A stretch of 64,000 nucleotides of DNA from Botryllus schlosseri. Taxonomy: Eukaryota. The notes below the pieces were generated by a model. That model did no database searches, was not told where the DNA came from, and was given only the letters and a program-made list of their open reading frames with translations. Each line of letters starts with the position of its first letter. Within the stretch, counting starts at the first letter, position 1. A program made the translations under genes and the position numbers. Location: NCBI GenBank assembly GCA_051294905.1, contig CM119372.1:22136001-22200000 (forward strand), read 5' to 3'. Of this stretch, positions 1,812-61,297 are shown piece after piece.

Positions 1812-1986
1812 CTGTGACTTGGACTCGACTCGAGTTATAAGACTATGACTCGGACTTGACCCTTAAAACGGTGACTTGGACTCGGACTCGAGTCGGTGAT
1901 GAATTGAAAATGACTCGACTCGAGTGAAAACCACAAAAGTCAGATTGACTCGTGACTCGGAACCATGTGACTTGGTTACAACCCTG
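1812..1986. mobile_element. Right arm of a GACTCG-repeat hAT MITE (same family as 14843-15345), left end missing
   Basis: Ends GACTTGGTTACAACCCTG, identical to the end of the 14843-15345 element, with many GACTCG/GACTTG subterminal repeats. A related right end lies at ~2420-2523. Confidence 0.75.
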
Positions 1987-2689
1987 CGTTTTACTCCGCG
2001 GGAGGGGTAGGCGTTTTAGCCACGAGGTTGCCATCATTTGCCGATCAGCTACCAGGTGGTTATTATGTGAATTCGCCTCCGGACCGTGGCTTAAATCCAA
2101 CCTCGCGCTGGTAAATAAGTCATAAATAGAACCGGAAAACTATCTGCAGCATCCGTTAAATATGACATTTCACTTGGTTGTAAAAGGCTTTTTTTGCTAA
2201 GAATATGTGTCAAAGTCATACAATCACATACAACGTTACAAATCTTCAATAGGCCGTGGAAATCAAAGTGGCATTTTTGTCTGACCATATTAGGCGATAT
2301 TTGCAATACTGTGACGCATTCAACCCTAGCATTGTTCTAATATATTGCTGGTAGGCGTCTTACCTTGCCGGTGCGTCTTACCCCACTCTACCCTAATCAT
2401 GCCTCATACTTCAAAAAGGCAACTTGACTTGACTCGAGTCACCTCCGAAAATCGATTGACTTGACTTGAGTCAAAATGTGCAATGACTCGTGACTCGAAG
2501 GTAGTGACTTGATCCCAACACTGCTGTAAACTCCGATCGCTGCGTTTGCGGTCAATTCATTTGTTATAACAACGGAGGCTCCAGTTGGTTCGTGGTACAG
2601 AACTTGAAGATAGCTTTCAATACAACATCCATTGTAGTAAAATATTTATTCAACTCGAAGACTTTTCGGGTGCCTCGAGAGTGTAATAT

Positions 2690-3606
2690 ATGTTTTTAAA
2701 AAAATTGAATTGTCTCCACCCAGCTCTACAATTTACTGTGGAGAAAGAAACTGATTCAGCATATCCATTTTTAGACGTGTTGGTTGAGAGATCTGAAAAA
2801 ATGTTTTTGACGTCAGTGTATAGAAAACCGACGTTCACTGGCCATTATATCCGTTGGGATTCTTTCTGCCCGAAGTGGCGAAAACTCAACCTAATATCAA
2901 CTCTGGTTCAACGGGCCTTGCGCATCTGTTCGCCAGAAAAATTGCCACGTGAATTGGATGAGATCCATTCTATCCTATCAAAAAATGGCTATCCTGAGCA
3001 TATATTGAAATGCTCCTTCGCAAGAGTGCTAAAACGTTCGGATCAACCTCCCAATTATGGACCAGAAAAATGCCCGGCATTTTTACATCTACCTTGGCTA
3101 GGCAATGTGTCCAATCGGTTTGAAAAGTTGATCAAATCGGCGGTGCACCGTTGTTATTATAGTGTAAATGCGCATGTAGTGTATACAACCAAACCACTTC
3201 TGCCAAACTTCCGAAAGGATGTGCTTCCTGCTTTAAATGCAAGTAACGTCGTCTACGAATTTAAGTGCCACTGTGATAGTAGGTATGTGGGACGTACATC
3301 ACAAAGATTGTTTGAACGGATAACGCAACACGTTCCCAAATTGATTCGCTAAAAAACTTGCGCAAATGACCGTACGGAGCTCGCACGACAATGTAAATCA
3401 GCCGCCAAAACCGACTGTTACGACGATTACCAAGCATACGCTTCGGCAATTGGCCAACATTTAAGTGAGAACCCTTCTTGTGCTCAAAACTATAATGACC
3501 AAATGTTTACTGTCATTGCGCGCGGCAGATCCTTGTTTCATTTGAAAGCCCTAGAATCACCTATCATCCAATTGACCAAGCCTATTTTATGCAGACAAAA
3601 AGATTT
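2690..3606 (+). pseudogene. PLE RT-GIY-YIG ORF fragment, copy 1 (premature TAA at 3350-3352)
   Basis: ORF 2690..3352 continues in frame past the stop (SAIGQHLSENPSC...HLKALES) and breaks at 3606. Confidence 0.9.
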
Positions 3607-3911
3607 GTAACGTTGTATGTGATTGTATGACTTTGACACATATTCTTAGCAAAAAAAGCCTTTTACAACCAAGTGAAATGTCATATTTAACGGATGCTGC
3701 AGATAGTTTTCCGGTTCTATTTATGACTTATTTACCAGCGCGAGGTTGGATTTAAGCCACGGTCCGGAGGCGAATTCACATAATAACCACCTGGTAGCTG
3801 ATCGGCAAATGATGGCGACCTCGTGGCTAAAACGCCTACCCCTCCCGCGGAGTAAAACGCCCCACCCCTTAAAGTCCAGTGGATTGAGTAGTCGTTTATG
3901 GGTTCCTCAGG

Positions 3912-5709
3912 GTTTTTGACGTCAGTGTATAGAAAACCGACGTTCACTGGCCATTATATCCGTTGGGATTCTTTCTGCCCGAAGCGGCGAAAACTCAACC
4001 TAATATCAACTCTGGTTCAACGGGCCTTGCGCATCTGTTCGCCAGAAAAATTGCCACGTGAATTGGATGAGATCCATTCTATCCTATCAAAAAATGGCTA
4101 TCCTGAGCATATATTGAAATGCTCCTTCGCAAGAGTGTTAAAACGTTCGGATCAACCTCCCAATTATGGACCAGAAAAATGCCCGGCATTTTTACATCTA
4201 CCTTGGCTAGGCAATGTGTCCAATCGGTTTGAAAAGTTGATCAAATCGGCGGTATGCACCGTTGTTATTATAGTGTAAATGCGCATGTAGTGTATACTAG
4301 GGATGGTGTGAACGTGAGGTTCACGTTCGTGTTCTGTGTGTGAACCTCGGAAAATTTGAGGTTCGCGTTCACAACAGAACCTTGGTAGGTTCTGCACTGT
4401 GAACCTTTTTCATATATTTCAATTTTCACTTCATTATAACATCTTTGGTTCAAATTTATTGACTTTCAACTGCGGGCTACTCTATGCATGGGGCTGGCAG
4501 CATAAACATTCAACACTAAACGAGCATGCCCTCGACAATCTCAAAAATTTACTTGTATTGTTATAAAAGTTTGCTCGAAATATCCAGCCTTCCGTTTGTG
4601 CATATTTAGTGTCTCTGTGCTGTGAGCTTGACCCGCAATCACATGACATCAAGAGCGAAATACACTGTATTTGGTCAGCAAATGATCCTTATTCAACCAA
4701 TCAATGAAATTGATATTGACTTCGGATGTAAAAATTCTAGCAGGCGTACGGGGTCAATCTTGACTACATATGTATACTGTATCATAAAAACTAAATCCGT
4801 GCGACTGGGGTGTTGGCTATACTGCTGTATAACTTGTTAATCGGTAGCAAGTATAGAAACCCATTTTACACTCTGCTCAATATCCATGTGGCAATACTCA
4901 GACGCCGAATACATTGTCCGATCAGGTCGAAATTGTTGGCAAAGCGACGCAAGATACTGATTTTATGGGATTATTATATCATTTGATTGCCCCAGTTGAT
5001 ACATTTGGCGACGTTTCAAACGTCAATATGTACTTAAGTACTGAGCTATTATGTGGCCCCGAGTCATCGCTCGGTATCGTGTACACTGTACAGTAGATTA
5101 ATATAAGCAATCACCTAATTGAAATATGGGGTTTAAATTAGCAATATGACGTCACGTGACGTCATGAGGTTCACGTTCGTGTTCACACAGAACCTTTCAA
5201 AAAGGTTCACGTTCACACGAACCTGAACCTTTCAGAGGTTCACACCATCCCTAGTGTATACAACCAAACCACTTCTGCCAAACTTCCGAAAGGATGTACT
5301 TCCTGCTTTAAATGCAAGTAACGTCGTCTACGAATTTAAGTGCCACTGTGATAGTAGGTATGTGGGACGTACATCACAAAGATTGTTTGAACGGATAACG
5401 CAACACGTTCCCAAATTGATTCGCTAAAAAACTTGCGCAAATGACCGTACGGAGCTCGCACGACAATGTAAATCAGCCGCCAAAACCGACTGTTACGACG
5501 ATTACCAAGCATACGCTTCAGCAATTGGCCAACATTTAAGTGAGAACCCTTCTTGTGCTCAAAACTATAATGACCAAATGTTTACTGTCATTGCGCGCGG
5601 CAGATCCTTGTTTCATTTGAAAGCCCTAGAATCACCTATCATCCAATTGACCAAGCCTATTTTATGCAGACAAAAAGATTTTCTGTATAACTTACAAATT
5701 TCCCATTAG
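3912..5709 (+). pseudogene. PLE RT-GIY-YIG ORF fragment, copy 2 (duplicate of 2803-3606 plus the natural 3' end)
   Basis: Near-identical to copy 1 and shares the same premature TAA (5425-5427). It has an extra 2-bp insertion near 4253 and a MITE insertion at 4298-5253, and ends KPILCRQKDFLYNLQISH*. Confidence 0.9.
4298..5253. mobile_element. Non-autonomous hAT (Ac-like TAGGGATG terminus) MITE, 956 bp
   Basis: Perfect 16-bp TIR TAGGGATGGTGTGAAC. 8-bp TSD GTGTATAC (4290-4297, 5254-5261). The empty site is visible in PLE copy 1 (~3179-3186). Subterminal GTTCAC/GAACC repeats. Confidence 0.95.
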
Positions 5710-5902
5710 TGCGTTCTAATTCGTGTTTGTTATTGTTTAGTTTCAAATTGATATGTTACTAGTACCGTACCGTACACTTCAAGTTTGTTATTGTTGCCAT
5801 TGTCACATTGCGGACTTCATGGTATGTAATTTCTGATTGTTGCGTCATACTTCGCCTTTCTGGTTTTGCTTTTCATTCTGTTTAAATCCCTTCAGTGTGC
5901 CG

Positions 5903-5943
5903 TTAACTCTTGAAAAGAGACACCCGAGAAGTCTTCGAGTTGA
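5903..5943 (+). ncRNA. Minimal type I hammerhead ribozyme-like motif in the PLE pseudo-LTR (degenerate: GAGA instead of GAAA)
   Basis: Stem I TTAACTC/GAGTTGA; core TTGAAAA (U3-A8 variant of CUGANGA); 1-bp stem II G..C; GAGA (GAAA in the inverted copy); quasi-palindromic stem III AAGTCTT; NUH = UUC. Confidence 0.6.
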
Positions 5944-6457
5944 ATAAGCATTTTACTACAATGGATGTTGTATCGAAAGCTAACGGAGGCTCCATAAAAC
6001 TCGCAGTCATTTGAGCGATTGGTCGCGCTCATAGGTATCACACCAGCGTATCGTTACCAATCAGGACTTATACGATATACAGCGTTTTGGTTGACACTGA
6101 TCACATACTGGCTTGTAAATTTTGCTTCCAGTCACGAGTCGATCCGCATTTCTGAAGCGTCGAGTCAAGTCATTTTTGCCAAGTGACTCAACGATTTCTT
6201 TGACCATCTCTGCTCCAGTGCTCATTGATGCCCTCGCCTCATGTACGCAAACGCATGACGGCAACTCACAAATTTCATTGTGACTTTCATATATTATAAT
6301 CAACGTAATTGCACATTACAACTATTTACAGCACGGCTTCATGAAAGATGCGAATAAAGTTAAAAGCAGCAGAGCACATGATGAAGTCTAGAGACACGTT
6401 CGCGTAAATGTAACATTCACTCGGCTAGGTCGCGGTTCCAGTCGCGCGTTGAGTTCC

Positions 6458-9400
6458 TTACACATTGTTTATATTCCGAGGTGAGTAACTCGGCGTCGAC
6501 GCATGTAATACCTCTTCAATAAAGCTGTGAAAAACATAAGTGAAAATCGAAACCACTGCTAGCTATAAAATAATCTACGGAAAGGCATTGGTTGAAACGG
6601 CGGAAAGAGGTTTAAACAACTGTACCTTGCACCATTATGAATAGTCGTTCCTCCTAAAACCACCCGGTAGCCGGCGTTGGAAGAATTCAATGTGTGCACG
6701 CAGTGCGATTCTTCGTACGTACAACCGCCAACAATAAATACGATGATATCTTGAGGCCTGGGATGCGAACGAACGACACTTTCATTAAGGCGTGTTGCTT
6801 TCAAAACGATGTACATGTCCTTCAGTAAGATCGCCATTCCAATTAGATATCACCAGGCCGTGTTATTTTTGGCATATGCCAAAACTGCCAAAAATAACTT
6901 ATTTTTGGCATTTTTCGATTTTTATTTTTGGCAGTTTTGGCATCATCCTCTAAATAGATAGTTTCAGCCTCGAATTAGTCACAAAAACGCTTTATTTGGG
7001 TTAGTTTGTCAAAAGACACCACAAAATGTGCAGCATCCACGTATAATCAGTGCCAACAAACAATAAGAAGAAGAAAAAACCTAGCGATTTCATAGGTTAA
7101 TAATATCAAACGAAACCACAAAATGTACAGTATCCATCGGAATCGGTGCCAATAAGCAAAAAAAGAAAGAAAAGCCTAAAAACACGCTCAACAGCTGATT
7201 GTTACAGCTGTTGAATAGACTTAACTCGTTTGCACTGTAACAATGCTTCCAAACTCAGGTCAGCTAAGTTTCTCCTAAATTCATTTCTCGCCCAGCGAAT
7301 CTGGGAAATATCGGCTTCAACGGTAGCCGTTGAGGGAAAGTGTGTTGCCAGTCATCCACAAAAGGTTTTCAGAGCTTCCATGCATCATGAGAAAAGATCA
7401 CTTCGCCAGTGCCATCGATCTCATCGCGGAAAGAATTTTATTCCCGATCCTTTTCCAGGAGTTTCCTGTGTTGTCTCTCAACACATTCTACTTAGTAGCC
7501 CGACTATCATTTCTCCTTCAGTCTACCGATATATTTTCGGAGGACTTTTGTCACTTCAGGTGGCTTTAATATTACCAACTCGCATGGAAGAGTCCTGGGA
7601 AGGTTAGCTTAAGAACATTGACGCAACAAGACTGTCTGGCAAAACGAGACTATGCAGCTCAGAAATAGCCAGATAGTTTGTTGCGTCACAATATTCAACT
7701 CGATCACAATGCAAAAATCGTGGTTAATTTTGGGGGTTCCAGTTCCATGAGCAGAATATAATTTATATTTTAATAATCAGTACTGCGGCAGCTTCTCATT
7801 GATACCCGTTTTATCAAATTTAGCGCTCGACAAGCCGGTCAAAAATGGTCGTAAAATTGCCTTTGGACAAATGGAAAGTATGACGTAAATCAAATGCAGT
7901 CAGCCGTTCAATCTCGCTGTGCCCACACTATTTAGGACACCATGCTTTCACTCCTAATGGGTGGGCTGGACCCAGATTAAGAAACCTGCCTTTCACAAAC
8001 GCTCTTCTCGCTTGTAACGCGGTCCTGTTAACACAACACCATGAACGAAATACACTATTTGGCAGGCCGTGTTATTTTTGGCATATGCCAAAAATTGCTT
8101 ATTTTTGGCATTTTCAAATTTTTATTTTTGGCAGTTTTGGCATCTGGCTCCTGAAATGCCAAAAATAACACGGCCTGGATATCACTCAGACATTGCAGGT
8201 CTCACGTCTGAAGTGTCTGGTTTTCAAGTCCGCCGAGAGATCGGTTATCATGTCTGGGTGTGCAACTGTGCATATTGTACAAGTTTGTCTAGGAGTCAGG
8301 TATCACGTCTGGAGCGTGTCTAGGGCAGTGGTTCATAAACTTTTTGTCCCAAAATCTGAGTTTTAATGGCTTCTCGCGACCCAAGCCTCGCACATCAAAA
8401 TGAATACATTTAACATTAGTATGCTACGTTTTTATGGGCATGTTTGAGATAGAGAACGAACAGGCAACAGTTGTACGAAATGCAGATCTATGAAACATGT
8501 CTGACGCACGCGATTTCAAATTGAGGAGCATTATTTTCCTCTGGGGTCGCATTTGTACAGAATATACACTACTGTCTGCTCAGAGATTGCAACGACGGGA
8601 CTATTCGTGGCCGACCATTTCGACGACAGGACAATTAAAACCGGAGGTTTTGGCCAACCAGCAACGGTCAATTTTGGTCAAGGTTTTATCACTGCTGTTA
8701 TGTTTGGCACCGCACTTTGGTAGGCCTTAAATACCTGTGTGTCATACTATTACCCTCCCCCCCCCCCCCGCTTGTTGCACACCCACAAGCTAAAGCTTAC
8801 CAACGTTATCCGACGGTGTTTTCCAGAGAAACCAATGTCAGACTAATGTATCTTGAATTCGAACCAATTTGTGTGATGTAAAGGACGCCCAATTTTCATG
8901 ATCAAGCCATATTACCAGCTATATAGTACCCAACACAGTGAGAATACCTGGTCTAGGCTGTGTTCAGTTCGGTCTAACGATTAGGCATCATGTCTGGAGT
9001 GTTGACAAGTCTGTCTAGCGCTCAGGTATCATGCCTGGAGTGTGTTCAATTTTGTCTAGCACCCAGGTATCATGTTTGGGGTGTGTTCAAGTTCATCTAG
9101 AACTGAGTTATCGTTGAAGTCGGTCTAACGCTAGATGATCAAGTCTTGAGTGCGTCTGGAGTGTATTTAAACCTCCACAGACAGACATGACACCCGAGCA
9201 ATACCTGCGATACCTGAGTGATACTGGCGTTACCTCAATATACTCACACACTCATAAGCATATAAAATAGGCATTAGTACAGTAGTTCTTAACCATGGTT
9301 CAAACGAACTCCAAGGGTTCGCGGAGCCCCAGTCTCAGGGGTTCGACAGCCGTCAAGACACACACTTATTATTATTCATGATGACACGCCCGTCTTGGCC

Positions 9401-30977: not shown

Positions 30978-31397
30978 TTATAAATCTTTTGGCAAAGATT
31001 GGAGCAACCTCTGTTTTATCGAGGGCAAAACAGCCAGATGCTCATCGGCACATTTTAACAGACAAGAATCGAAGTTTTGTTTCGCCCTCTCTTCTCCGAC
31101 GGCCGACAAGCTGTCCTGCGCCGCGTCCTGGCAAGTCATAATACATCTTTGTATTCGGTTTTGGAATCTCTCTAGTTCTTGTTTCACGTTACTCTGCAGT
31201 TCCATCAGCGGCCTCTGACACGACTGAATGCATCTTTGAACATCTTCAGCGGTTGAAATTGAGTCTTCACAACACTTTGCTCCACACAGGTAAGATTTTC
31301 TTTGCAAACTACGTACATGTTTTTTCTCCAGTTCCCTCTGCATGTCATTGGCAGCAGTATCAATCTCTGCCATTTTCTGCTTGACATGTTCGCCCAT
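30978..31397 (-). CDS. FAM136A: FAM136A (DUF842) mitochondrial intermembrane-space protein, single coding exon
   Basis: 139-aa ORF with VRSLQRKSYLCGAKCCED, VQRCIQSC, ELERFQNRIQRCIMTCQD and CLLKCADEH (CX3C pattern). Confidence 0.93.
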   Translation of the reverse strand: MGEHVKQKMAEIDTAANDMQRELEKKHVRSLQRKSYLCGAKCCEDSISTAEDVQRCIQSCQRPLMELQSNVKQELERFQNRIQRCIMTCQDAAQDSLSAVGEERAKQNFDSCLLKCADEHLAVLPSIKQRLLQSLPKDL

Positions 31398-32327: not shown

Positions 32328-33032
32328 TCATGATGTCACACCAGATGCACAGTTGTTTTCATATTCCGTTTTATCCATCAATCCCTCAATGGTTTGGGCT
32401 CTCTCATCTAGTTTGATCATCACGACGGCAATATACCCATCCGTGTCATGTTTCTCCTTCAATAATGCCGGGTTCTCTACAAGCTTCTCATTAACCTCCA
32501 CCAGATTCCCTCGAATTCCTGACCGAACAGTATAAGCAGCATCATCATTGGTCGTAACAATACACAAGGGACTTTCCGGATTCAACCATTGTGCGCCTCT
32601 TTTCCTTTTACCAGAGACAACATTTCTGGAACGATCGCACTTATCGGTCACTCTGAAACTGACACTTTTGATACCAGACTTGCTCGTCAGCGACGGGTGG
32701 CTAGGAGCTAGGGTAATAATGCATAGTTTGTTTGAATGCATCAAGACCCTTACATGGTTCTGTTCCGAAAATGGCAAGGTCGCAAATCCCAAGGCAGGTA
32801 TATTCATGCTATAGTATTGAGAAAAATATCTTTCCACGACTGATGGATAGAATTTGCATTCCTTCTGAAAATCCCCAACCTGGAGGGTGCCAATTTGCTC
32901 TGTGTGCATCATGTCTGTTGCGTTATGCATTTCTGAGGAGTCATTTTTTATATCACTGTTTTCTTCAGGAGAGTCATACGAGGTATTTTTTTCTTCACCC
33001 AAGCGTGTTCCTACTTCTGCCAGGGATTCCAT
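32328..33032 (-). CDS. ABITRAM: Abitram/Simiate (FAM206A; glycine-cleavage-H-like fold), single coding exon
   Basis: YPSVVERYF, HSNKLCIITLAPSHP, DRSRNVVSGKRKRGAQWL, IRGNLVEVNE, GYIAVV. Confidence 0.92.
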   Translation of the reverse strand: MESLAEVGTRLGEEKNTSYDSPEENSDIKNDSSEMHNATDMMHTEQIGTLQVGDFQKECKFYPSVVERYFSQYYSMNIPALGFATLPFSEQNHVRVLMHSNKLCIITLAPSHPSLTSKSGIKSVSFRVTDKCDRSRNVVSGKRKRGAQWLNPESPLCIVTTNDDAAYTVRSGIRGNLVEVNEKLVENPALLKEKHDTDGYIAVVMIKLDERAQTIEGLMDKTEYENNCASGVTS

Positions 33033-33446: not shown

Positions 33447-34013
33447 ACTTTAATCGAATTGAACAGCCACGAATTTAGTGAATATAGTCCACTCTATGCC
33501 ACCTCTTTTATTCTATCATCTGAAATATTATTAACATCTATGTTCATGCAAGCAAACAAAGTTCGCAATGAGCACGAAGGACTATAGATTTATATGACGT
33601 CGATCGCAAAATACCTCCCGTTTTTTTGCAAGACAAAAGAGAAATCAAGCGAAATATGTTAAATAGTCAACGATTATAGCTTAAACATACCCCATAACTT
33701 TACATGAGATAGGCAAAATCTAGTGGCAACTGGCAACATTGATTGTTTCTTATTAACTAGAATCATTTTGAGCATAATTTCAGCAATTTACAGTTTTTTG
33801 ATTCCATGCCTAAAGTAAAGTAACTGATGATCAAGAGTGGAATTGGTGGTCATGTCACCCGCAACTTTCCATTCAATTACCTATTTATCCTACGCAAGAA
33901 ACATTTTTGTCATGCGCAACGTTAGCGACCTAGCAACCAAACCACTGTTACGAGTCTGGCTGATGACTAGACAAGACAGTCACAGACTCACAGTTCCACT
34001 CATGACGTAACTA

Positions 34014-35135: not shown

Positions 35136-35207
35136 GACTCCGTGGCGCAACGGTAGCGCGTCTGACTCCAGATCAGAAGGTTGCGTGTTCAAATCACGTC
35201 GGGGTCA
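35136..35207 (+). tRNA. tRNA-Trp (anticodon CCA), intronless
   Basis: GACTCCG..TGGCGCAACGGTAGCGCG TCTGA CTCCAGA TCAGA..GTTCAAATC..CGGGGTCA forms a full cloverleaf. A and B boxes present. T5 Pol III terminator at ~35220-35224. Confidence 0.97.
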
Positions 35208-35462: not shown

Positions 35463-36129
35463 GTTTATCAGTTTGTCGCTCAGTGCGGTATCTCCGGCGG
35501 ATAAGATAAAAGAACGGAAATTGTATGAAATAGTGCTCCTCATGATCGAATACGATGGTTCACATTAATGCAGAAATAGTTTCGCCGGAATGGAATCGTG
35601 ATCACCGAGATTATATATGCTTGCCTCGCTCGCAACAATATTTCGAGTTGATTAAATCTGGTTATAAAATGATTCTGATTTTTCTTGCGTGACAGGACGC
35701 GGCCCATCGTATTCACTGTGTTGGATGTGTTCTGTTCTGCCGCAACGGCGCAACGTTCGGAATGGAGTCTCCCAGACTGGAATTAGTGGTTGTTTTCGGC
35801 AATAAGTTGCGCGCGACAGAAGGGTTTCTTCCATAGAATAATTAAGGAATTAAATGGAAAGTTGCGCGTGACGTTTGCCACCAATTCCACTCTAAAGTCC
35901 TATAATGCAAATTGCAAGTCAAACCGATTCCATCGTATACTTATCAAGCAATATAAGCTCAAGGCTGGTGACAATATTGATATTTATGTTGTCTGCTCAT
36001 TTCAACAGAAATCGATTTATAGCATTTGTATATATAGTCATTCATTCATGCCATATGAATTTACTTTTTTTGGTGTCCTGTATAAGCCAGGGGCTCCCAA
36101 CCCGCCAACCGGTGGTACCTAACCATATA

Positions 36130-37687
36130 GGGTAACCCTAAAAGGAGGGACCGCGGAAACTGCGGAAAACGCGGAACTCGCGGAAACGGCCCCTAAAACG
36201 CGGAAACTGCGGAAAATGCGGGAAACCTCGATTCCTAAAGCGCTGAAACAAGAGGAAAACGCGGAACGCGGAACAGTCGGTCATTGACCTCTATAGATCA
36301 CAAAGTAGCCACTAAAACGAGGAAACAGAGGAAAAGGCGGAACGCGGGACAGTCGGTCATTGACATTTGTGGATCTCATAGAGGAGCTCTGAAGTCTAAA
36401 ACGACGAAACTGCGGGACACCAATGTTAGAGTGAGGCGAAGTAGAACTCATAAATGGCAGAGAACTGTTGATGGCGCTTCTTCGTTTTACAATACAAAAA
36501 TTTATAAACGTCAAAATAAATTGTTTTTTCCTTGGGAGAGACGGATTAGGGTTGGCGGAGGGGGTATATTAGGGTTACGTGAGGGGGATATTAGGGTTAG
36601 GAGAGGGGAGATATTAGGGTTGGGGGAGAGGGGGATGTTAGGGTTAGGAGGGTTAGGGTTAGGTTAGGATTAGGGTTAGGTTAGGGTTATGATTAGGGTT
36701 AGGGGAGGTGGGATATTAGGGTTAGGGGAGGTGGAATATTAGGGTTAGGGGAGGTGGGATATTAGGGTTAGGATTAGGATTAGGGGAGGTGAGATATTAG
36801 GGTTAGGGGAGGTGGGATATTAGGGTTAGGTTAGGGTTAGGGGAGGTGGGATATCATGTCCCTAACCCTCTTCTCCAACCCTAATATCACCTCTCTCCCC
36901 AACCCTAACATCCCCCTCTCTCCAACCCTAATATTCACGTCCCCTAACCCTAATATCCCACCTCCCCTAACCCTAACCTAACCCTAATCATAACCCTAAC
37001 CTAACCCCTAACCCTAATATCCCACCTCCCCCAACCCTAATATCCCACCTCCCCCAACCCTAATATCCCACCTCCCCTAACCCTAATATCCCACCTCCCC
37101 TAACCCTAACCTAACCCTAATCATAACCCTAACCTAACCCTAACCCCTAACCCTAATATCCCACCTCCCCTAACCCTAATATCCCACCTCCCCAACCCTA
37201 ATATCCCACCTCCCCAAACCCTAATATCCCACCTCCCCCCAGCCCTAATATCCCACCTCCCCCAGCCCTAATATCCCACCTCCCCAACCCTAATATCCCA
37301 CCTCCCCTAACCCTAATATCCCACCTCCCCCAACCCTAATATCCCACCTCCCCCAACCCTAATATCCCACCTCCCCCAACCCTAATATCCCACCTCCCCT
37401 AACCCTAATATCCCACCTCCCCCAGCCCTAATATCCCACCTCCCCAACCCTAATATCCCACCTCGATGATCGACTGTCCCGCGTTCCGCTGTTTCCTCGT
37501 TTTAGTGCCTACTGTGTGATATATAAAGGTCAATGACCGACTGTTCCGCGTTCCGCGTTTTCCTCTTATTTCAGCGCTTTAGGAATCGAGGTTTCCCGCT
37601 TTTTCCGCAGTTTCCGCGTTTTAGGGGCCGTTTCCGCGAGTTCCGCGTTTTCCGCAGTTTCCGCGGTCCCTCCTTTTAGGGTTACCC
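36130..37687. mobile_element. Foldback (Mutator-like) non-autonomous element with telomere-like internal minisatellite arms
   Basis: Near-perfect ~220-bp outer TIRs (GGGTAACCCTAAAAGGAGGGACCGCGGAAAC...). 10-bp TSD TAACCATATA (36120-36129, 37688-37697). G-rich TTAGGG-containing array at ~36545-36853 mirrored by a C-rich array at ~36860-37463. Confidence 0.92.
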
Positions 37688-38477
37688 TAACCATATACCA
37701 CTAGTGGTACACAGCGTTTTTTTTCTGGTGCCAGGTGGTACCCGAGTATCTTCGGTTTCTTTTGATTAACGAAACCTGGATGTAGATGTAGGTGTAGCCC
37801 AGAATTGGTGGAAACGTCACGCAGAACTTTCTGTTTAATTACTTGATTATTCTATGCAGAAGAGCTCTCATATCACAGGATTTATTTCAAAAAAATGAAC
37901 CGAGATTCCATGGGGGGCTGTAGCTTCATATTTTGTTGATCTTTTTTGTTTACAAGAAGTACGTTAGTAAGTAAGTATAATCTTTTAGCTCAAAAAACTT
38001 CTGGCTCAGTGTCGTCTTTTCGTATATTTGCATGAGGCATGCTGTTCCACAACCACTGATTTTCCCTTCCACGTTAGAACGTGTGATTTTCAGACTTCAA
38101 CATACATCAAATAATAAACATTAAAACTTACTAGATGAACATGGAAGCTGGAAATGCGATATAACCAAAATCTTATTCAATTTATTTGTGGTGATTTCGT
38201 GTTATTTGAATAAGCCAGTAAAACATCAAGTTCCCAAATATTAGCTGTACAGAATATTCAAGTGGTAAGAGTTTGATTGGGATCCGTGCTAAAATAATCC
38301 CACACTACAAGTCCGTGCCCATTCACAGGAGTAACTGAGGCTTCTGGTATTGAATGTCACAGCTTAAAACTTATGAAATATTCTTTCAAGTCAAGTTATT
38401 TTTCTCTCACTTTCAATTTTGTTTGCAGATATATACTGATATGATATAATGCAACTCATCAAGACCTATTTACTATA

Positions 38478-41400
38478 ATGGCAGACGGTAGCCCCGAAAA
38501 AGCTAGTGACGATGAGTTACTGAGCGGACAGTTTGTTTTGCACACTCTCATTACGGAGTTCATTGCTCAGGTAGATAAAAAAGTGGATCACCTTCTCAAC
38601 AATCAGCTAAAAAATTCCCAATCCCTGACAAAGGATAATCTCGCGAAGTCACTGCAGCGGGGCGAGGACCCTCAATTTGACCAACTGCTGTGTTCTCTGG
38701 GATGTGTGGCGGAATATTGCCTTCCGTGTCTTTTAGAGACTTTACTCGGCTGGTACAATCATCAAATACCAGATAAGAAAACTGGCCATGCCGAATCTGT
38801 CAATGAAAAAGTACAAAAATTGGAGTGGAAGGGGAAGAATGATTCTAAACAAGTCACGGATTATGTTAAAGATCGATATCGCGAGTTTGCTGTTGAGTTC
38901 GTCTTCTGTTTGGTGCTCATCGAAATTTTGAAACAAATACCGGTCCACCCGCTTCCAGACAGTCAGATTCGAAGCATTTTGTCGAAAGCTTTCAACAGCT
39001 TCCATGCGTCTGCTCACCCAAAAGACAGCGATGTCGAAATAAGTATTATAGCTGATCTGTACGCCGAAATGATTGGCGTACTCGCACAAACAAAATTTCT
39101 GGCGGTACACCACAAGTTCATGTACGAACTACTGAAAAAAGACACGCCTGCGAACACTCTCATTTCCCTCATTATGGGCATGAAGTATTTCCGCGTGAAG
39201 ATGTTTCCGGTTGAAGATTTCGAAGCGTCGTTCAGGTTTATGCAGGAACTGGCGAATTTCAGTTTGGAGAGCAAATATCGCGATGTGAAAAACGCTCTGG
39301 CTGGTATGTTTGTTGAAGTGTTAATTCCTGTCTCAGCTGCCGTGAAAACGGAAGTGAACGTTCCTGTCTTGCGTGATTTTGTCGATTCCTTGTATCCCAC
39401 GAGTTTAGAGTTGTCGAAGCGAGCTAAGAACAAGCCTGTGATTTTCCCTCTCGTCACCTGTCTGTTGTGCGTGTCGCAGAAAACTTTTTTCTTGAACAAC
39501 TGGCACATATTCTTGGATATTTGCCTGTCGACTTTGAAGAAAAGCGACTCCAGGCTTTCGAGGGTAGCGTTGGAGTCTCTGTACCGTCTGTTGTGGGTGT
39601 ACATGGTCCGTATCAAATGCGAGAGCAACACGACGACCCAAGCAAGATTGCAGTCGATTGTGAAAAACTTATTTCCCACTGGCTCCAGAAACGTTGTCCC
39701 CAAGGATATGCCCATCAACATATTCGTGAAGATCGTACAGTTTATTGCGCTGGAGCGTCTCGATTTCGCGATGAGAGAAATCATATCTGACTTGCTTGCA
39801 ACGACCGGTTCATCCTCAAGAGCCGCTAAACCCGTTACGTTATATCCAGAAAGAATGAACATAGGTTTGAGGGCGTTTTTGGTGATCACAGACAGCCTAC
39901 AGCAAAAAGACGGTGCACCGCCTATGCCGTCTACGATGAACGTCATGCCGTCCGGGAATACAATCAGAGTAAAGAAAACATTCTTGAATAAAACTCTGAC
40001 AGAGGACGACGCCCGTTCTATCGGCGTGCTGCATTATTTGCGACAAGTGCAAAGAGCGCTGGCCGGTATTTTGTTATCGCTGGACAGCCAAGTGGGTATG
40101 AAACTCCTGCAGACAAACACTCAATTTCACAACAAAGACCCACACGACTTCATCACCAGCGAGCAGAAGCCTAAAATCGAGTTATTTCGGACTTGCGTTG
40201 CAGCGTTGCCGCGATTGATGCCTCATGGCATTCCGCATGGAGACCTGCTGGATATCGTATGTCGTCTTACGATTCACGTAGATGATGATTTGCGCAGTCG
40301 CGCCATCGCTGCACTGCAAGCATTTATTATCGACTTCCCAGTGCTGAGCGAGGAAGTCGTGGCTTCGTTTGTTTCGTTCGTTCAAAGCCAGGTGTCCGAT
40401 ATCCACCAAGAACTGCTGAACAATTCGTTGAAAATAGCGTCCTCGCTCGTAAGCACTTGGAGAACTAGTATCGTCGGTGCCGAATCGAACAAAAGCCCTA
40501 AGAAACAATTGAAAAAATCGGAAGAAAAGACACAATCTCCATCCCCCATCTCACCAACTCAGTCGCGCTGCACGTACGCTTCTGTAATCAACAGGCTTGA
40601 GGGTTTCGCGATCGTATATCTATGCAGCTCGAGGAATCTTACCAGAAAACTTGCGTGCCACCTTCTCAAAGAAGTGAGAAGTCTTGCGGGCGTTTTGGAG
40701 TACGGAAAACCGGAAGAGCCTCTTTGTTTAGACATGTTGGATCAATTGTGCCCGGAAGTGTCTGCCGAGGTTTTGAAGGAAGAAAAATACTTCAAGCGCA
40801 TGGAGACTCACGATGTCGAAGCTATTTTGGCGACTGGGTGCGAAAGAGAATTTTCTAGTCTGGTTGAACTGTCGAGCAATTGGTTGGAGAGCGAAGGCGT
40901 CCATCCTTGGATCTACTTCATGGTCCGTTTCATTGACGTGTCGCGGCTGCAAAGGACTTGCTCCAGAGCTCTTCTTTACTCCTGGCCCGACGCTTACATC
41001 AGGGCGTCTCAAATTCAGAAGTACATCGAACCGTTCATGACTTCGGGTAGCAAAAAAGTCACGTCGGCCCCACTGGTGAGCGGAGATCAAATCTTGATAT
41101 TATGGACCCATTACTTGATATTGCTTTGCCGGTCTGCACTTTCGAACACGTCGGTGAAGCAAAGGCGTAATGAAGAAGCAGCTGTGCCCGCAGGCACTCC
41201 CGATTGGAAAGTGAAGTTGATTCGAGATGGGAAGATATTGGACGCGGTGCCTTCCAATTTATTTCAGAAAATGATAGGGATAGTTAGATCGGACTTGTTT
41301 CCGCCAGCCTACAAAGAGAGCGTTGTGTTGGGCCTTGGCTTTACGAGCACAGCCGCATTTTACGACCTTCTCTGCGAGCTGCAGCACGTCATCCATGAAG

Positions 41401-44400
41401 GTGGCGAGAGCAAAAAACAAGAGAATGTACGCAGAAGGCGGAAGCGCGAAAACATTCGTATATTTCTGATAAAGTTGTTCTCCAATTTGGCGATTCACGA
41501 GGCGCTCAGCAAAGGCATCTACAAGCAAGTGGACAAGCTTCCGGATAGCAAGAAAATTCCGAAAGAGGTGATCCAAGAGTACGTGAGCGACACACAGATG
41601 ATTCTAGACTCGTTGGATCGATCTGAATCAGCCTTGGTCACGAGTTTTTCTTCACAGCAATACAGTTCGTCATCGCCTTTTGGTCAGATAGCGTTAGCCC
41701 TGAACTCGGCCGGAATTAAGGAAGAAATGAAGCTGAATTTCGCCGACATCGTGATCAATCTTGTGAAATACTACCGCGTCTCGTCCCGGCCGAATCTGCT
41801 GACTCAAGACACGAAGAGACGTCTTTTTCACATGTTCAGCTCGTGGTACGACAAATACCTGAAAGACAAGGAGAGGTATTCGAACAATTCGTACTTGGAC
41901 TGCGCCAAAAAAATGCTGAGCGCCCGGTGCTCGGTGATGTGCTGCGGACCCATCTTCGAGGAGGCGGCATTGGCCAAAAACGGATACCTGTACGACTATC
42001 TCGAGTTTCTGCTCAATTCCGGCGATATATTTATGCGACAGCTGGGACAAGAGAGCATAGTCATGTTGCTACACTTTAATCCGAATTTGTCGCAGTACCT
42101 GTCGTGGATTTTTGAAAAGTGTTACACATCGTCAGATATGGTCGCGAGAGCCTGTTTCTTGGGCTTGGCATCGGCCTACTCGAACTCAAACTTCAACGGT
42201 AGCGTGACTACGATTCTCACGCTTTCTCTCTTCTATACGACAGATACAGACGCAGAAGTGTCGCAAACAGCCGAACTTCTGTTGAACTCTATTCTTTCTA
42301 AGGACTTCATAAAGCCTGTGGAGGAACGGATTGGCGCTCCAACCAGCGGCACTTCCTTTCAGAACAACGGAATATCTCGGAAATCATCCATCATCAAGTC
42401 TTCGACGTCTAGCTATTCACACTCCTGTCTGAAAGTGACGGAAGACCTTGCCCGTTCTCATCAGGAGCTGACACATTGTATTTTGTCCGAGATATTTATG
42501 AGATTGCCACGGGCAGACGATACGAAAAAACGCAGACTTTTGAAAGTGATCCATCCGTGGTTGCAGAATGTTGAGCTTATCCCCGTTGGCGATTACAATT
42601 CGGAATATTCTGACAGCGAAAACTGTTGCGATCACAGGCACCAGTGTCTACCGGGGAAAGGCTGGGGAACAAACGCTGCGAGTCTTCACGTTCTCAGTAA
42701 CGTTATGTATCTGACGACACATTATCACCGTTACTTGGAGGAGGAAATCCAAACTTGCTGGTCTGTGCTGTGTGGCACGTGGCACGCAAACTTGTTTGCT
42801 TGCTTGCAATATTTGACGGCGTTGTACTCTGTCGAGTCGCGAGACCTGCTCAGAAACGCGATCAGGCAGGCAGTTACTTACATCAGTAAAGCGAACGGGG
42901 CACGGGTGCTTTCCACACTGATAGAGCAGTGCTTGCGATCAGAGCCAGTGGATGTAACGGTTGAGCCGTGTGTCAATGAGCCGTGTTACAAAGTTGTGGC
43001 ACGGAATCCCAAATTTGACGGTGACTCGCCTGCTAAAAAATCGTGCGAGTCCAGCTCGAACACGGAAATATTTTCTGATGATACCAGCGAGTGCTCTGCC
43101 GAAAACAAATCCCAGCACTCGAATTCCGGTGCCGAACAGGCCAACACCGAAAACAAAGACTCTTTCAAATCATCTGTAGCTCTGCGGCGTGTCGTCGCTC
43201 GGAGCAGTCGTCCTAATTTCAGACTATCTCTTCAAATCCCGGGCAGCGACAAGTCTGGATCCATGAACCAATCGTTGGGAATGATGTCGAAACGTTCCCC
43301 GATGTTATCGTCTTCGATGATGTCATTGACGAAAACTTCGTCAGATCAAGGCATGTCTGGCGAAGAATCAGGTCTGCTGCGCTTCAATACAATATCTCCC
43401 GGCCGTCCTGGTGAGACGGATCAAAGATTCTCGGGATTCGAAGCTCTTACTAACAAAATTCCCTCGAAATTCGCGTCTCCAAAAGACAGACGATCAAGTT
43501 CGCCTCTTCGAAAATCGGAAAACAACAGCGACCTGTCTCGGTCGAATGCTTCGACCAAAGATAGCAGCATGCTCAATGCGACAATTGACGGCAGCTACGA
43601 AATTTCCGAGTTATTAGCGTGGCTTGAACATCACTGTACCGACAAGTCACCCAAACCGTTACCTTTACCATTATCTTCCTTCCATCTGCCATTGCACAAA
43701 TTAATCGTATGCGATCCGGTCGACGGGCTAATGTACTCCAACATATCGTGCATATTCCTGTCGCAGCTGATTATCAATCGTAGTTTGGATATCAACTGGA
43801 ACATTCATCTGCCCCTCGTCTCACTGGCTTTGATTCTCAACATGGACGACACCGATGTGCTAAACGTGCCGTTCTATTGTAAAAAAATGCTGGCACACAT
43901 CATCCTGATACTGGCGAGGGATAAGATTCCCAAGGATTTGATCAGACCGATACTGTCCTATTCGCTGGAATCATGCGATACTATTTTGGGCTCGTCTCGG
44001 GACACTATACCTTGTGGCGGTGAGATTGTTGTGTATAAGCTTTCTGAGAAAAGTATGCTCGAATCGTCTTTGAGCTCTGACGGATTTGTTGAGGATGCGG
44101 TGAAGAGGTTATTGACTGAATTGGTACTCGACGGTACAAGAATGTGGAACTTTGAAGACGTGGGTCCTAAAGTGATCGTCCTGAAAAGTACCGAACGACT
44201 CGCTCGATTCGTAACCCTGTTAGCGGACATCGTCGAAAGATGCAGCCCACGTATCAAGTTCAAACAGCGACTGGCCAGCGAGGCCGCGAAGCTAACAGTA
44301 TCAACGCCGCACAAGCATCACGCATGTCGTGCCTTGCAAGTCTTTCGCGCCTTGGAGCTACCACTCGCGACATCTGTGTTCAGTAAACTTATCCGCTGTT

Positions 44401-47400
44401 TGGCAGGAAGGATTGCTTACGGCGTGGACACGGATAACCAGTCACACGTCATTGAAATATTGTTAACGCTAGTGCACGATTGTGATATAGGTTGCAGCAC
44501 GTCCGACGGCAGTCCGGTGTGTAAAGTTTCCGAGAAAATCGAGCCTGTGAATGCGAGTTTGTTCTCGTCGAATATAGATGCAAATCGGACACAGTCAGAC
44601 AAAGAACGCAAACAGCCCCGCTCTCCCACTCCCGGACGTGTACTCACTTTTCCCGGCAGCCCCAAAAGAAGCGCCCCCGCCCAATTTTCAGTGCATGTTC
44701 CCAGTCACGCGGGACAAAATACAGTAAACGGCAAGCAGGTCGACGCACCGAACCGGGGTCGCAAAGTTCACGCGCATCGCCGCTCTGGGTCGGTGACTTT
44801 AACGAAAAAGATGACCTCCGAACTGCTGAGTTCTGTGGCGAGCCACGGTGGATTCAACGTGAGCAGTAAGTCTGTGCCCGAGCTGCGACCTAACTTTGCG
44901 GTGCACGAACCGTCAGATACTTTAAGCCTGGCTCCGAGATCGCCGCTACACACCAAGTCTGTAGACGCGTCTCCTGTGCATGATGTGAGAAGGATATCGC
45001 AGGCGCTGTCGCCCAACACGTCCGGAGATCATGTCAAAGCTGCTATCAACAATAATGCTGGGGATGTCTTTGTACCGAGTGACGTGAAAAGCAGCGGTGC
45101 TAAGGAGAGAGACGCGACTTTCGCACAAATGTTTTGGATTGGAGTCGCGATGCTAGAGTCCGATTACGAACACGAGTACTTACTGGCGTTGCAATTGCTG
45201 GAGAGAGTCTTGACCCTTCTGCCTTTGGATTGTAAAGACAACAGAACGCTTATTGAGCGCTACTTGTCGCAGATCAAGTGGGCCTCGTTTCCCGGGGTTC
45301 AGAGTCTGCTGCTGAAAGGCCTGACGTCGTCTGCGACTTTTAATCCGACTTTCCGTTTGTTATCGTCGCTCACCGCACACTCTCATTTGCAATTGGTGTC
45401 TGGAAGTCGCAGCGAAAGCCACGGATTTGCTATGAATGTCGTCGCGCTGCTTCCGTACTTGCTTGACAGCTTTACAGATCCTGATTACGTATGTTCTAAC
45501 GCGGCGAAAAATGTCGCGGACGTGTGCTCGCAAAGATACTCGCGAGAGAAGAAACTGCAGAGTCTCGCGCACGTTATGCTGCTCTATTCGTCGCACACTT
45601 ACGGTCAGTCTTCGACTATCTGGATTAGCGTCGTGTCGAAGTATATCCACGAGACCTTCCCGGATAGCATACGTGAACAGTTGGACTTTCTATTGGGAGT
45701 GCTAGACCGCGGGCCCAGTTCAGTGCATCAATCCTGCCTGCGTATTGTACACAGTCTTTTGTTTTTGTCCGAGCTGCTGCTTTCGAACGAACAGTCGGAT
45801 GTGGCGTTCCATCAGAACATCTTGAAGACGGTGTCAAAGTTTGTGAACAACACCAAGCTTTGGAAGGACGCTCTGCAGATATTGAAGCTAGCCGTGTCCA
45901 GGTCGTCTGCGATTACGACTCCTGCTGTTTCCAGCTCGATGCTGTCGGTTTCTGACAGCGATCGCATCTCTCTTCCGGGCAGGACGCTGACTTTCAAATT
46001 CAATTTGTCGGACACTCCGATCATAGGACGCCGTAAAAACGAAGACCAGCTCAACAAAAAGTCTCCCTACGCGGGCTCGCCTACGTACCACCCCAGCACT
46101 GCGTCAATGATAGTCAGCAGTTGGAAAAAACCGATGTTCTCGCAAAAACGCACCTATGAGCGGATGTCGTGCATCGCGCAAATTTGCGGTAAACATCTCG
46201 TGGTCGCCAGAGATTCCGTGCCGGTGTTGGATCCGCCTGCCTCTAACGAAATAGCAGAGAAATTCCGTGAAGCCGCGAAAAATAACGGATTGGTAGAACA
46301 AGACGGTAACGACGCTGATCGGAACGAAGACGCAGAAAGCAGTGGTTCTGAGAATGAAGACGATAAAGAGATTGCAGGAAGCGGGGTGGACGACATTGTG
46401 GTTTTGCGGAACTTTGACTTTTTGGATGAATTCGACGACAACGATGATGGTTTTACGACCGGCTATCAAAAGCCGAGCAAAACAATTCACGACGGTAGCA
46501 ACATGGAAGATGACCCGGTGGACTGTAATCTCACGCCGGTGGCGCACCGTGACAGCATGCCCGAAGCGGATCCCACGCAATCGGAAGATTACTCTGATCT
46601 CAGCGACACCGGCGAGGTGGACATCACGTCGCATACGTCAGGAGTCCTGTCTCAATCTTGGAACGGGAACAAAAGCCATTTGACAGAAATGGGCTCTACA
46701 GAGTTCTATTCCTCTCTCGTCACGATATCATCGGCGGAAAAAGCAGAGATGCCGCGGGTGTCCTCCTGCGAGAGCATCAACAAGATCAACCCTCTGTCGC
46801 GTTGCTATTTACAGAACAGGCTCACGCAGAGCGAGATGCATCTGAACAAAAAGGCGAACTCTTCAAACGAGTCTTTGAAGAGCTTGCAATTTGATAAGAC
46901 CGACGAACTCGATGAGAACGACACCACAGACACTGAAACCAACCCCGAATCTGACCCAGAGCACTTTGACAGCAGGCCCATCTCGGTTAGCAAGGATTTT
47001 GTTGAGGATGAATACAACGAAAAGTACCATGACGATTTGATGTCTTCATTGGTTCAATTGACAACACCGCCGCCGCCTGTTTCAGAATCTCCAGACTTTC
47101 CGCAAAATAGTGATGGTACTACACCGGCGCATGATATCCCGATCGTAGAACCGCCGCCCGTTACTAACGACATTACATCAAATCTTTCGGCCGTACCGTT
47201 CGGTTTGCCCGTTCAATTTGTTTCGGTCGCGAGTGCGAACAAATCAGAGTCGAATAACAACTCTGATTCATCAAGCTCTGATCCTGTCGCGTACCAAGAT
47301 ACTATATTCACGGCTTGGAAATTGCATTTGGCTTCCATAGGGACTATGAACGATTCGGTTTTTGTGGCAAAGACTTTCGACTTGTTCCCGACGGTTTTCA

Positions 47401-48293
47401 AAGTGCTGTGCGTGGATTTCAGCGCTTTCAGCAAAAACGGCTGCACGTATTTAGGCGGGCAGCTTTCAAAAATCGCCGAGCATTTCAGTTCCATGGTGGA
47501 GCAGTTGCCTTCGCAAATCAAGTGTCCTCGGTGTCTGGCTTCTAAAATGGCGATCGATCCTGTGGCCGAACGCATCGTCGAAGGAATCCATGAGTTGCAA
47601 GAGCACTTTGAGGCGTACAATGCGAAAAGGAGGTTTGCAGTCGAATGTATCGACGCGATAAAAGAAATCGAATATAAGAACGGGAAGGGATCGATAAAAT
47701 CGCAAGGTATCGGACACAAGCAGTTGGAATTGTGCAGACTTCTGTACAGGCTTCATTATCAACTGCTGCTCTTGTTGAAATGCTTCAACCAGCTGATTCG
47801 CATTCTGGCTTCGAGTACAAACGAAAATGGAAAAAATGTCACCGGCCAACTGGAATCGCTCAAAAAGAAAGTGTTGACGATCGAGAAGACCTATCAGACT
47901 CACCGAGACAAGCAAGACACTGAACTACGACTGTATTTGAAATCACGAACTGTGGAGGAATCGGAGCAGGCGCTGATGTCTAGCATCGCGAACGAACACC
48001 TTCACCTGGCCATCCGGCAGCTGAACCTGTTGCGTCAATTGTGGCCGGCGCAGTATTTCGGGCACGTCGACCAGCCCGCCGGCGACTTCTTGATGAAGAT
48101 TTACTTCAACCACCTGGAGCAGCAGGGTGATGAACCCATTTTCGCCATTCTGGGATCGGAACAAGCATCGCACGACGTTTGCGAAAAACTGATGGAAGTT
48201 AATGGGCAGATTCAGCAATCTTTGGACTCTCTGGCGCTCAATGCCGGCGATATAAATGCGAGTCCAGCGCTGGTGAAAAAAACTCATTTTTAA
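38478..48293 (+). CDS. FRY: Protein furry / furry-like (MOR2-PAG1 family scaffold), 3271 aa, intronless CDS
   Basis: Uninterrupted ORF with furry hallmarks [74 protein letters not shown] and LPGRTLTF. A 3' splice acceptor TTTTGTTTGCAG ends at 38428 in the 5' UTR. Confidence 0.96.
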   Translation: [3271 protein letters not shown]

Positions 48294-60535: not shown

Positions 60536-61297
60536 TCAAGACCCTGGCGCGTCTACCTGATGCGAATTGTGAAGCCACAAACGCTTTTTCAAAATATACA
60601 GCACAGTGCTGAAGAACAGAGCCAACGCCAGAAAGATCAAGAATTTATCGGTGCACTCTCGCCGTGAATATTTAGTCAACAGCCGATGGCCTGTTTTGAT
60701 AACGCCGGATTGATCTTTCAGTTCTTCATCTGTCTTCCGTATAGTGCTTGAGGATTTCACTAAAGTGTTTAACGCTTCTCCACTCCTATTAACGTTATCA
60801 TTGATAACTCGGGTAATGCTCAGTAAGCTTTCTGTTAAATCGTTTGCAGTTCTCGCCACATTTTCTCGGCTTGCTTCGGCAGTACGCCGTCTCCTCAGCT
60901 CATCACCTTGATCAGTACCGAACAACGAATCTCTGTTTTTCTCCTCCAAGGAAGTCTTTTTCTCCATATACGCATTGCGTAGGAGTGAAGTGGTGTTCAA
61001 CAATTGCTCGCGAAACTGCTTGGCTGAAGATTCTATTTCAGATACCTGCTTCAGGTCATGTAGTTCTCGGCCAGAAAGATGATACTCCTCAATCGAGTCA
61101 CGGAGAAGTTTCAGTTTTTTGCGGGCTTCTTCATATTCCTTTTGCAAGTCGTCCAGTGGGCCGTTGTGATTCCATATATCACCAACTGCGGCCTTGATTG
61201 CGCAGTCCAACTCGACAATTGTCGACTTGAGCTTGTTTGATGAATCGTCGGACGTTGCCTTATCTGAGCCTTTGCTAAATCGACCGCGGAGACTCAT
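60536..61297 (-). CDS. BNIP1: BNIP1/SEC20 ER SNARE, single coding exon
   Basis: Coiled coil with TESLLSITR, LLTKYSRRECTDKFLIFLALALFFSTVLYILKKRL (Sec20 domain plus C-terminal transmembrane helix). Confidence 0.93.
   Translation of the reverse strand: MSLRGRFSKGSDKATSDDSSNKLKSTIVELDCAIKAAVGDIWNHNGPLDDLQKEYEEARKKLKLLRDSIEEYHLSGRELHDLKQVSEIESSAKQFREQLLNTTSLLRNAYMEKKTSLEEKNRDSLFGTDQGDELRRRRTAEASRENVARTANDLTESLLSITRVINDNVNRSGEALNTLVKSSSTIRKTDEELKDQSGVIKTGHRLLTKYSRRECTDKFLIFLALALFFSTVLYILKKRLWLHNSHQVDAPGS

Follow-up and report, generated by a model that had tools for sequence, protein, structure and literature searches.

Mutator-like elements (MULEs) have terminal inverted repeats (TIRs) of >100 bp and have target-site duplications (TSDs) of 8-10 bp at their flanks (PMC5499845). 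In Muta1 of Aedes aegypti, the 145-bp TIR combines nine 12-bp subterminal repeats with an imperfect palindrome, GGGTCTACCC; transposase binding is affected by both, and excision rises with the number of repeats (PMC5499845). More than 300 non-autonomous derivatives of Muta1 with variable repeat numbers and varied interiors have been described (PMC5225508). Here, we analysed a 64,000-bp stretch of the Botryllus schlosseri genome (assembly GCA_051294905.1, contig CM119372.1, positions 22,136,001 to 22,200,000; hereafter the window), for which an earlier note had described a foldback transposon built from head-to-head telomere-like repeats upstream of the gene FRY. Our results suggest that this element is likely a non-autonomous Mutator (MULE)/type-2 foldback transposon with a passive minisatellite interior, and not a chromosome fusion.

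The element shares with Muta1 and its derivatives a TIR of >100 bp, an imperfect terminal palindrome starting with GGGT and ending with ACCC, short subterminal tandem repeats, unequal repeat numbers at the two ends, a non-coding heterogeneous interior, and a family of hundreds of derivatives. In contrast to Muta1, which has a TSD of 8-9 bp and 12-bp repeats, it has a 10-bp TSD and 9-bp repeats organised in higher-order modules, and its interior is an inverted G-rich minisatellite. We regard it as a probably recent, Muta1-like element. It also resembles Tetris of Drosophila virilis, a non-coding foldback element with an 8-10-bp TSD that was assigned to Mutator by its structure and has tandem repeats in its arms sharing sequence with the outer TIR; however, the Tetris repeats are ~220 bp long, whereas the unit described here is 23 bp, strand-biased, and prone to form G-quadruplexes (G4s) (PMC4079207). 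In that text, "telomer" occurs once and does not concern Tetris. Composite TIRs with variable motif numbers are likewise found in Tm1 of Meloidogyne, which has a 9-bp TSD, but the terminal motifs of Tm1 are asymmetric (PMC3169594). The Phantom group, with TSDs of 8-10 bp, includes Tunicata, and Rehavkus carries a minisatellite ahead of its 3' TIR, while MULEs were reported to be scarce in chordates, with one sequence from Ciona savignyi (PMC6446971). Arrays that are telomere-like or head to head are absent from the consulted passages on Tm1, Phantom, and Rehavkus (PMC3169594, PMC6446971); related tunicate ends may be listed in the element tables that supplement the latter paper. A literature search that included few subscription papers, no Repbase, and no supplements gave no element of the Mutator or foldback type with TTAGGG-like arrays in head-to-head order, nor did passages of PMC6947457, PMC9071541, and PMC6431247. 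The element described here is of a known type, with an unusual G-rich, partly telomeric minisatellite in both orientations. A foldback element of Ciona was reportedly described by Simmen and Bird in 2000.

Ends and terminal inverted repeats of the element

The foldback element occupies 36130-37687 and is 1558 bp long with GGG...CCC ends. The span given in the earlier note (36120-37697) additionally contains two 10-mers, namely the left TSD (36120-36129, TAACCATATA) and the identical right TSD (37688-37697). A 10-mer match by chance was estimated at ~1-2 x 10^-6, and none of 60,581 other position pairs at equal spacing in the window matched. The window alone allowed TSD parses of 10, 8, or 6 bp. 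The 10-bp parse was chosen because other copies of the element, described below, end exactly at 37687, not at 37688 or 37689; one full TSD pair, that of the present insertion, was observed. Consequently, the previously proposed length, ends, and 10-bp TSD were confirmed, with a perfect pair and a length fixed by other copies.

The left TIR (36130-36363, plus strand, 234 bp) opens with the imperfect palindromic terminal motif GGGTAACCC at 36130-36138. Modules then follow, beginning with CTAAA(A/G)C at 36193, 36235, and 36312 and filled with 9-bp repeats of the GCGGAAAC type, in agreement with the modules noted earlier in the outer arms. The right TIR (37463-37687, minus strand, 225 bp) is without one 9-bp module and abuts the array directly with no spacer. 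In an alignment of the two TIRs, 217 positions matched and 8 did not, with one gap of 9 bp, and the outermost 87 bp were perfect. Of the GCGG(A/G)A(A/C) motifs, 12 fall within 36130-36420 and another 11 within the right TIR, as against 15 in the remaining 62,442 bp (both strands). Between the left TIR and the left array lies a spacer (36364-36542, plus strand, 179 bp) that is unpaired and non-coding, with a partial module at 36396. It has no counterpart in the right arm, which has lost ~180 bp. The description of the whole as a near-palindrome was overstated: only the TIRs match in register, whereas the spacer is unpaired and the arrays, which are inverted, are not mirror images.

A 142-codon frame over the left arm and spacer gave no Pfam match, no Rfam family was matched inside the element, and no further copies of the TIR, spacer, or array were found within the window. 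Assignment to a superfamily was considered on structure. TIRs of >100 bp and a TSD within 8-11 bp were found together with G/C-rich terminal three bases, a Mutator feature (PMC13359780). The terminal palindrome with subterminal tandem repeats corresponds to a type-2 foldback element, and the inverted arms form most of the element in the minimum free energy (MFE) fold, with an in-register match over the TIRs only. Many copies and a putative empty allele, both described below, are those of a mobile family. The same anatomy could belong to another superfamily, either a hAT element with an 8-bp TSD and AGGG...CCCT ends or a P-type foldback element similar to Galileo, since the 8- and 6-bp parses fit the window alone and Galileo, a P element with foldback structure and a 7-bp TSD, has long and internally repeated TIRs (PMC3573991). 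However, copies stop at 37687 rather than at 37688 or 37689, which does not fit the 8-bp TSD that most hAT elements have (PMC5499845), and the 7 bp of Galileo differ as well. We therefore consider another superfamily very unlikely.

Copies in sequencing runs and a putative empty allele

Four of 16 sequencing runs (X1, X5, X6, and X8) were compared with 37475-39274, which contains the right TIR, its flank, and the start of FRY; 24 of 193 rows of loose ends and 32 of 684 pieces were listed, and statements on contigs refer to these. In the DNA run X1, three bins wholly within the TIR had a summed depth of 3197-6807, against 13-15 in the single-copy flank; this ratio of 210-520, which is not identical with a copy number, was read as hundreds of ends. 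TIR-like contigs were present in all four runs. One of these runs, X6, probably represents a related species; its FRY shows 41 differences in 617 letters. Copies that stop at 37687 and continue into other sequence were seen among the listed pieces in X5 (two contigs), X8 (one), and X6 (record 17). The earlier note had named two cases that would speak against it, a single-copy sequence with no TSD-bearing relatives and a palindrome that long reads show to be an assembly artefact; for the TIR, neither was borne out by the read comparison, in which no long read across the present insertion was seen. The structure, the TIR depth, and the other copies support its proposal of a mobile, multi-copy, non-autonomous element of the Mutator/foldback type with a 10-bp TSD.

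Comparison with these copies also distinguished the two arms. At positions 37521 and 37568, ~82% of the X1 depth carries the letter of the left TIR, and the 9 bp absent from the right TIR occur both in X5 and in X8, in a single contig of either run. Because the X1 majority letters match the left TIR and the missing 9 bp exist in X5 and X8, the left TIR is, as judged from these runs, nearer the family majority, and in the present copy it is the right arm that is degraded. Contigs of X1 and X6 were also observed to loop back inside the TIR (37522-37624) via different linkers, which suggests relatives with longer tandem arrays of a ~120-bp TIR module.

An X1 contig of single-copy depth (record 2, depth 13.7) enters the right TSD from other sequence. 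It agrees fully with 37686-37831, and the 255 letters ahead of this match do not fit the TIR. Since two letters are common to the left flank and the end of the element, an empty site was predicted to begin matching at 37686. Furthermore, at 38420, 39125, and 39149 the full depth of X1 deviates from the window, and X1 therefore represents another haplotype. These sequences strongly indicate that the X1 individual is without the insertion and that the element is polymorphic for presence and absence.

Besides the distinction between depth ratio and copy number, several points weigh against the interpretation as a mobile Mutator/foldback element. The 255 letters of record 2 are characterised only by their misfit to the TIR. 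The X8 flank contig has its start at 37695, with seven bases of the TSD ahead of it. A filled junction was not seen among the listed pieces of the four runs. No transposase was detected among the 12 window frames scanned, and no genome-wide search was made; the superfamily thus rests on structure because no transposase with these ends was found, and foldback structure also occurs in the P elements represented by Galileo.

As the listed pieces include no filled junction and the read comparison covered 37475-39274, an assembly artefact might also be suspected, either of the palindromic interior or of the entire insertion. However, the 10-bp duplication is perfect, and the TIRs differ at 8 positions and by a gap. 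The units carry private variants (3 and 5 on the right and 3 on the left), unlike a mirrored read, and X1 is another haplotype, as its three full-depth differences show. An artefact is, in our judgement, highly improbable, and a mobile Mutator/foldback family is the reading that we follow below.

Some further observations concern the target and the distribution of the element. The X8 allele differs within the first seven target bases, perhaps reflecting an older footprint. The target overlaps CCTAACC, but a preference for telomere-like targets was rejected, as the two displayed flanks of other copies (X5 and X8) begin otherwise. Neither the exact TIR-end 20-mer and array 21-mer in metagenome contigs nor the exact subterminal 21-mer in viral contigs gave a match; both collections are unlikely to include Botryllus, and these results are hence uninformative.

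Head-to-head minisatellite arrays

The left minisatellite (36543-36852, plus strand) is G-rich on the plus strand and contains 21 TTAGGG, which cover 41% of it, and 4 G4 motifs. From its outer edge, it consists of degenerate GAGAG-type units (36543-36634), a mixed run of TTAGG and TTAGGG, and GGTGG-type 23-mers. The right minisatellite (36860-37464, minus strand) is G-rich on the minus strand and contains 39 CCCTAA, with 38% cover, and 14 G4 motifs; it has GAGAG-type units at its inner edge (36887-36956), two TTAGG-rich runs, and ~26 units. Tandem Repeats Finder gave copy numbers of ~9.4 and 2.4 in two rows for the left array and 25.9 for the right array. At the centre (36848-36862, GGGATATCATGTCCC), the strand bias flips at about 36855, and the two sides are not mirror images. 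The ~23-bp unit, the flip from G-rich to C-rich, and the unequal copy numbers that had been pointed out all hold. This anatomy of the arrays is known from the present copy, the read comparison having extended from the right TIR through the flank into the beginning of FRY.

Next, we considered how telomeric the arrays are, TTAGGG being the telomere motif of chordates (PMC6305377). TTAGGG covers the arrays to the extent given above, but in-phase telomeric tracts reach at most 15 nt and (TTAGGG)3 is absent. The regular 23-bp unit holds a 12-nt telomeric tract, a length reached by 14 of 20,000 shuffles, whereas in a gapped alignment with the pure telomere repeat the unit was no better than shuffles (68/300). 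Among the right-array cores, 15 read TTAGGG(T/C)T(T/G) versus 14 with TTAGGGTTA. From these comparisons, the arrays are best described as a 23-bp minisatellite with a 9-12-nt telomeric core, above chance and below a telomere. The phrase "built from" telomere-like repeats is correct in so far as the interior of the present copy carries such arrays, and it is unsupported for the family as a whole.

G4 motifs numbered 4 on the plus strand and 14 on the minus strand of the arrays, versus 1 predicted elsewhere in the window, and the mean G4Hunter score was +1.45 for the left array and -1.60 for the right array. In the MFE fold of the element as single-stranded DNA (ssDNA), 1118 of 1558 nt were paired at -578 kcal/mol, with no helix of at least 8 bp within 36855-36952. 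The left arm alone folded no better than shuffles (z -0.87). G4 formation on both strands and a long hairpin in ssDNA are thus predicted, and the earlier proposal of both structures is supported to the extent of computation.

These features could alternatively mean that the whole family is a mobile interstitial telomere, which would recruit TRF- or POT1-type proteins, be fragile or seed telomere healing, and perhaps thereby shield itself or alter nearby genes such as FRY. Several counts point in this direction and weigh against a passive interior. The 12-nt tract is beyond chance, and the arrays hold 23 TTAGGGTTAG sites, versus 1 in the rest of the window. The motif YTAGGGTTR matches 40 times within these 920 bp, versus 4 times elsewhere in the window. 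To these are added the 18 G4 motifs against 1. The minimal human POT1 site is TAGGGTTAG according to the title of a reference. A degenerate human array at 2q14 binds TRF1, TRF2, RAP1, and TIN2, and transposition has already been proposed as a source of interstitial telomeric sequences (ITSs) (PMC6410037); the chordate repeat is also of the fitting type (PMC6305377). On the other hand, ITSs are bound by TRF according to their conservation and length (PMC6410037), and the longest pure tract here is 15 nt. Half of the right-arm cores have drifted, and the telomeric match is therefore not being kept. The arrays are, moreover, asymmetric, partly deleted, and known from one copy. We consider such a mobile telomere unlikely and, preferring a passive interior, conclude that the element most likely has no telomere function, although telomere proteins may, by analogy with the degenerate human array, bind weakly to the arrays.

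The orientation of the arrays, G-rich and then C-rich on the plus strand, is also that of fusion-type ITSs such as human 2q13-14 (PMC6410037). The element might accordingly stem from telomeres fused end to end, or from a break at which telomerase inserted sequence, and have been flanked by transposon ends later. Like the human locus, it has degenerate TTAGGG-containing arrays lying head to head. Unlike that junction of chromosome ends, however, it is a 23-bp minisatellite, not (TTAGGG)n joining former chromosome ends, inside an element with matched TIRs and one TSD; single-copy gene-bearing DNA continues across the insertion, and the site is seemingly empty in another individual. A fusion relic therefore has an almost negligible probability, and the view of the earlier note that the locus mimics a fusion signature while being bounded by TIRs and a TSD is supported.

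For a transposon carrying a passive minisatellite, the head-to-head layout would have arisen within the element, either because a stretch of one array was turned round in place or through two deletions in a symmetric foldback. The GAGAG-type units of the two arrays share a 20-mer and lie on the outer side of the left array and the inner side of the right array. The first possible history would start from one direct array that had degenerate units on either edge and was then partly inverted in place; in the second, a symmetric foldback would have lost the inner part of its left arm and the outer part of its right array. Under either history, the fusion-like arrangement may be private to the present copy. 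The exact inverted arms of at least 12 nt nearest the centre lie 49 nt apart. For the first history, ATGAT at the right junction (37466-37470), which returns in reverse complement as ATCAT at the centre (36853-36857), gives a weak hint of a staggered break. A snap-back at the centre was ruled out, as its two sides are not mirror images.

By analogy with Muta1, the element would move by cut and paste: a transposase encoded elsewhere would bind the terminal palindrome together with the subterminal repeats of 9 bp, excise the element, and reinsert it via a cut staggered by 10 bp. The interior, an unstable G-rich 23-bp minisatellite, would travel as passive cargo. Its 9-12-nt telomeric core may derive from an amplified terminal motif or from captured telomere-type DNA; for Tetris, the internal repeats were likewise proposed to derive from terminal sequence (PMC4079207). 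The terminus of the element carries TAACCCTAA at 36133-36141; this 9-mer is the array core in reverse complement, a match that was spotted post hoc. Only 73 of 62,355 window 25-mers hold any of the 46 9-mers of the unit. The array would grow and shrink by slippage, probably aided by G4 formation.

Genomic setting and implications

FRY (furry) lies to the right of the element as one uninterrupted open frame (38478-48293, plus strand, 3271 aa). Its best named relative is that of Styela clava (72% over residues 50-700), followed by that of Clavelina (63%), which points to a stolidobranch ascidian as the most likely host, and its ATG at 38478 aligns with the starts of the relatives. The distance from the right end of the element to this ATG is 791 bp, in accordance with the ~790 bp stated previously. 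A pyrimidine tract followed by AG ends at 38428, 50 bp before the ATG, and looks like a splice acceptor; the FRY transcript may thus begin further upstream or be trans-spliced. In the read comparison, which showed no FRY transcript start, coverage of the flank junction by X5 and X6 was low or absent. Because this acceptor-like tract precedes the ATG, the element may lie in an intron or outron rather than in a promoter. It is situated within the 5.4 kb that separate FRY from a divergent frame ending at 33032.

The host sequence to the left of the insertion (36088-36119, plus strand) seems to resume at 37696-37709, and no second copy of it was found in the window. It looks like the end of a hAT-type miniature inverted-repeat transposable element, apparently split by the insertion. 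On the right side, an unrelated second high-copy repeat (37802-37911) reaches a depth of 7323 in X1. It has an inverted partner at 35827-35887 (86% over 63 bp) and a third piece at 33840-33896, and it shows sharp ends in all four runs. As two of the three window pieces are inverted around the foldback element, the latter may be nested in this second repeat.

Other features of the window were also recorded. A tRNA-Trp(CCA) gene (35136-35207, plus strand) lies ~0.9 kb to the left of the element. The DUF842 (30978-31397), GCV_H-like (32328-33032), and Sec20 (60536-61297) frames look intronless, as does FRY. The region 1986-5917 consists of rearranged, near-identical (99%) pieces with open frames that resemble a retroelement protein and gave no Pfam match; its copies are direct (2803-3186/3912-4297 and 3177-3606/5252-5681) or inverted (1986-2246/3600-3860). 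Two older repeat pairs of 570-650 bp with 78-79% identity (16190-16742/25069-25597 and 10-653/17888-18518), one inverted and one direct, a 41-bp tandem repeat of 3.2 copies (8959-9090), and a C-run with a G4 motif (8740-8787) were also present.

A high-copy, still mobile chordate Mutator family in which most copies carry head-to-head telomere-like G4 arrays and bind telomere proteins seems doubtful to us. If it exists, however, there would be hundreds of presence/absence-polymorphic telomere-fusion mimics, the terminal recognition motif would itself be a telomere-protein site, and the family would be a direct example of a DNA transposon spreading interstitial telomeric sequence, with natural alleles for tests of fragility and position effects. 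The spread of ITSs by a mobile element would then, if the arrays are family-wide and bind telomere proteins, be testable with filled and empty alleles. As a likely Mutator/foldback transposon with a passive interior, the element would add a clear Muta1-like foldback family to the tunicates, in which MULEs were reported to be scarce. It also suggests that a transposon can give a false telomere-fusion signal, and that head-to-head TTAGGG-rich DNA in the middle of a chromosome should first be checked for TIRs and a TSD.

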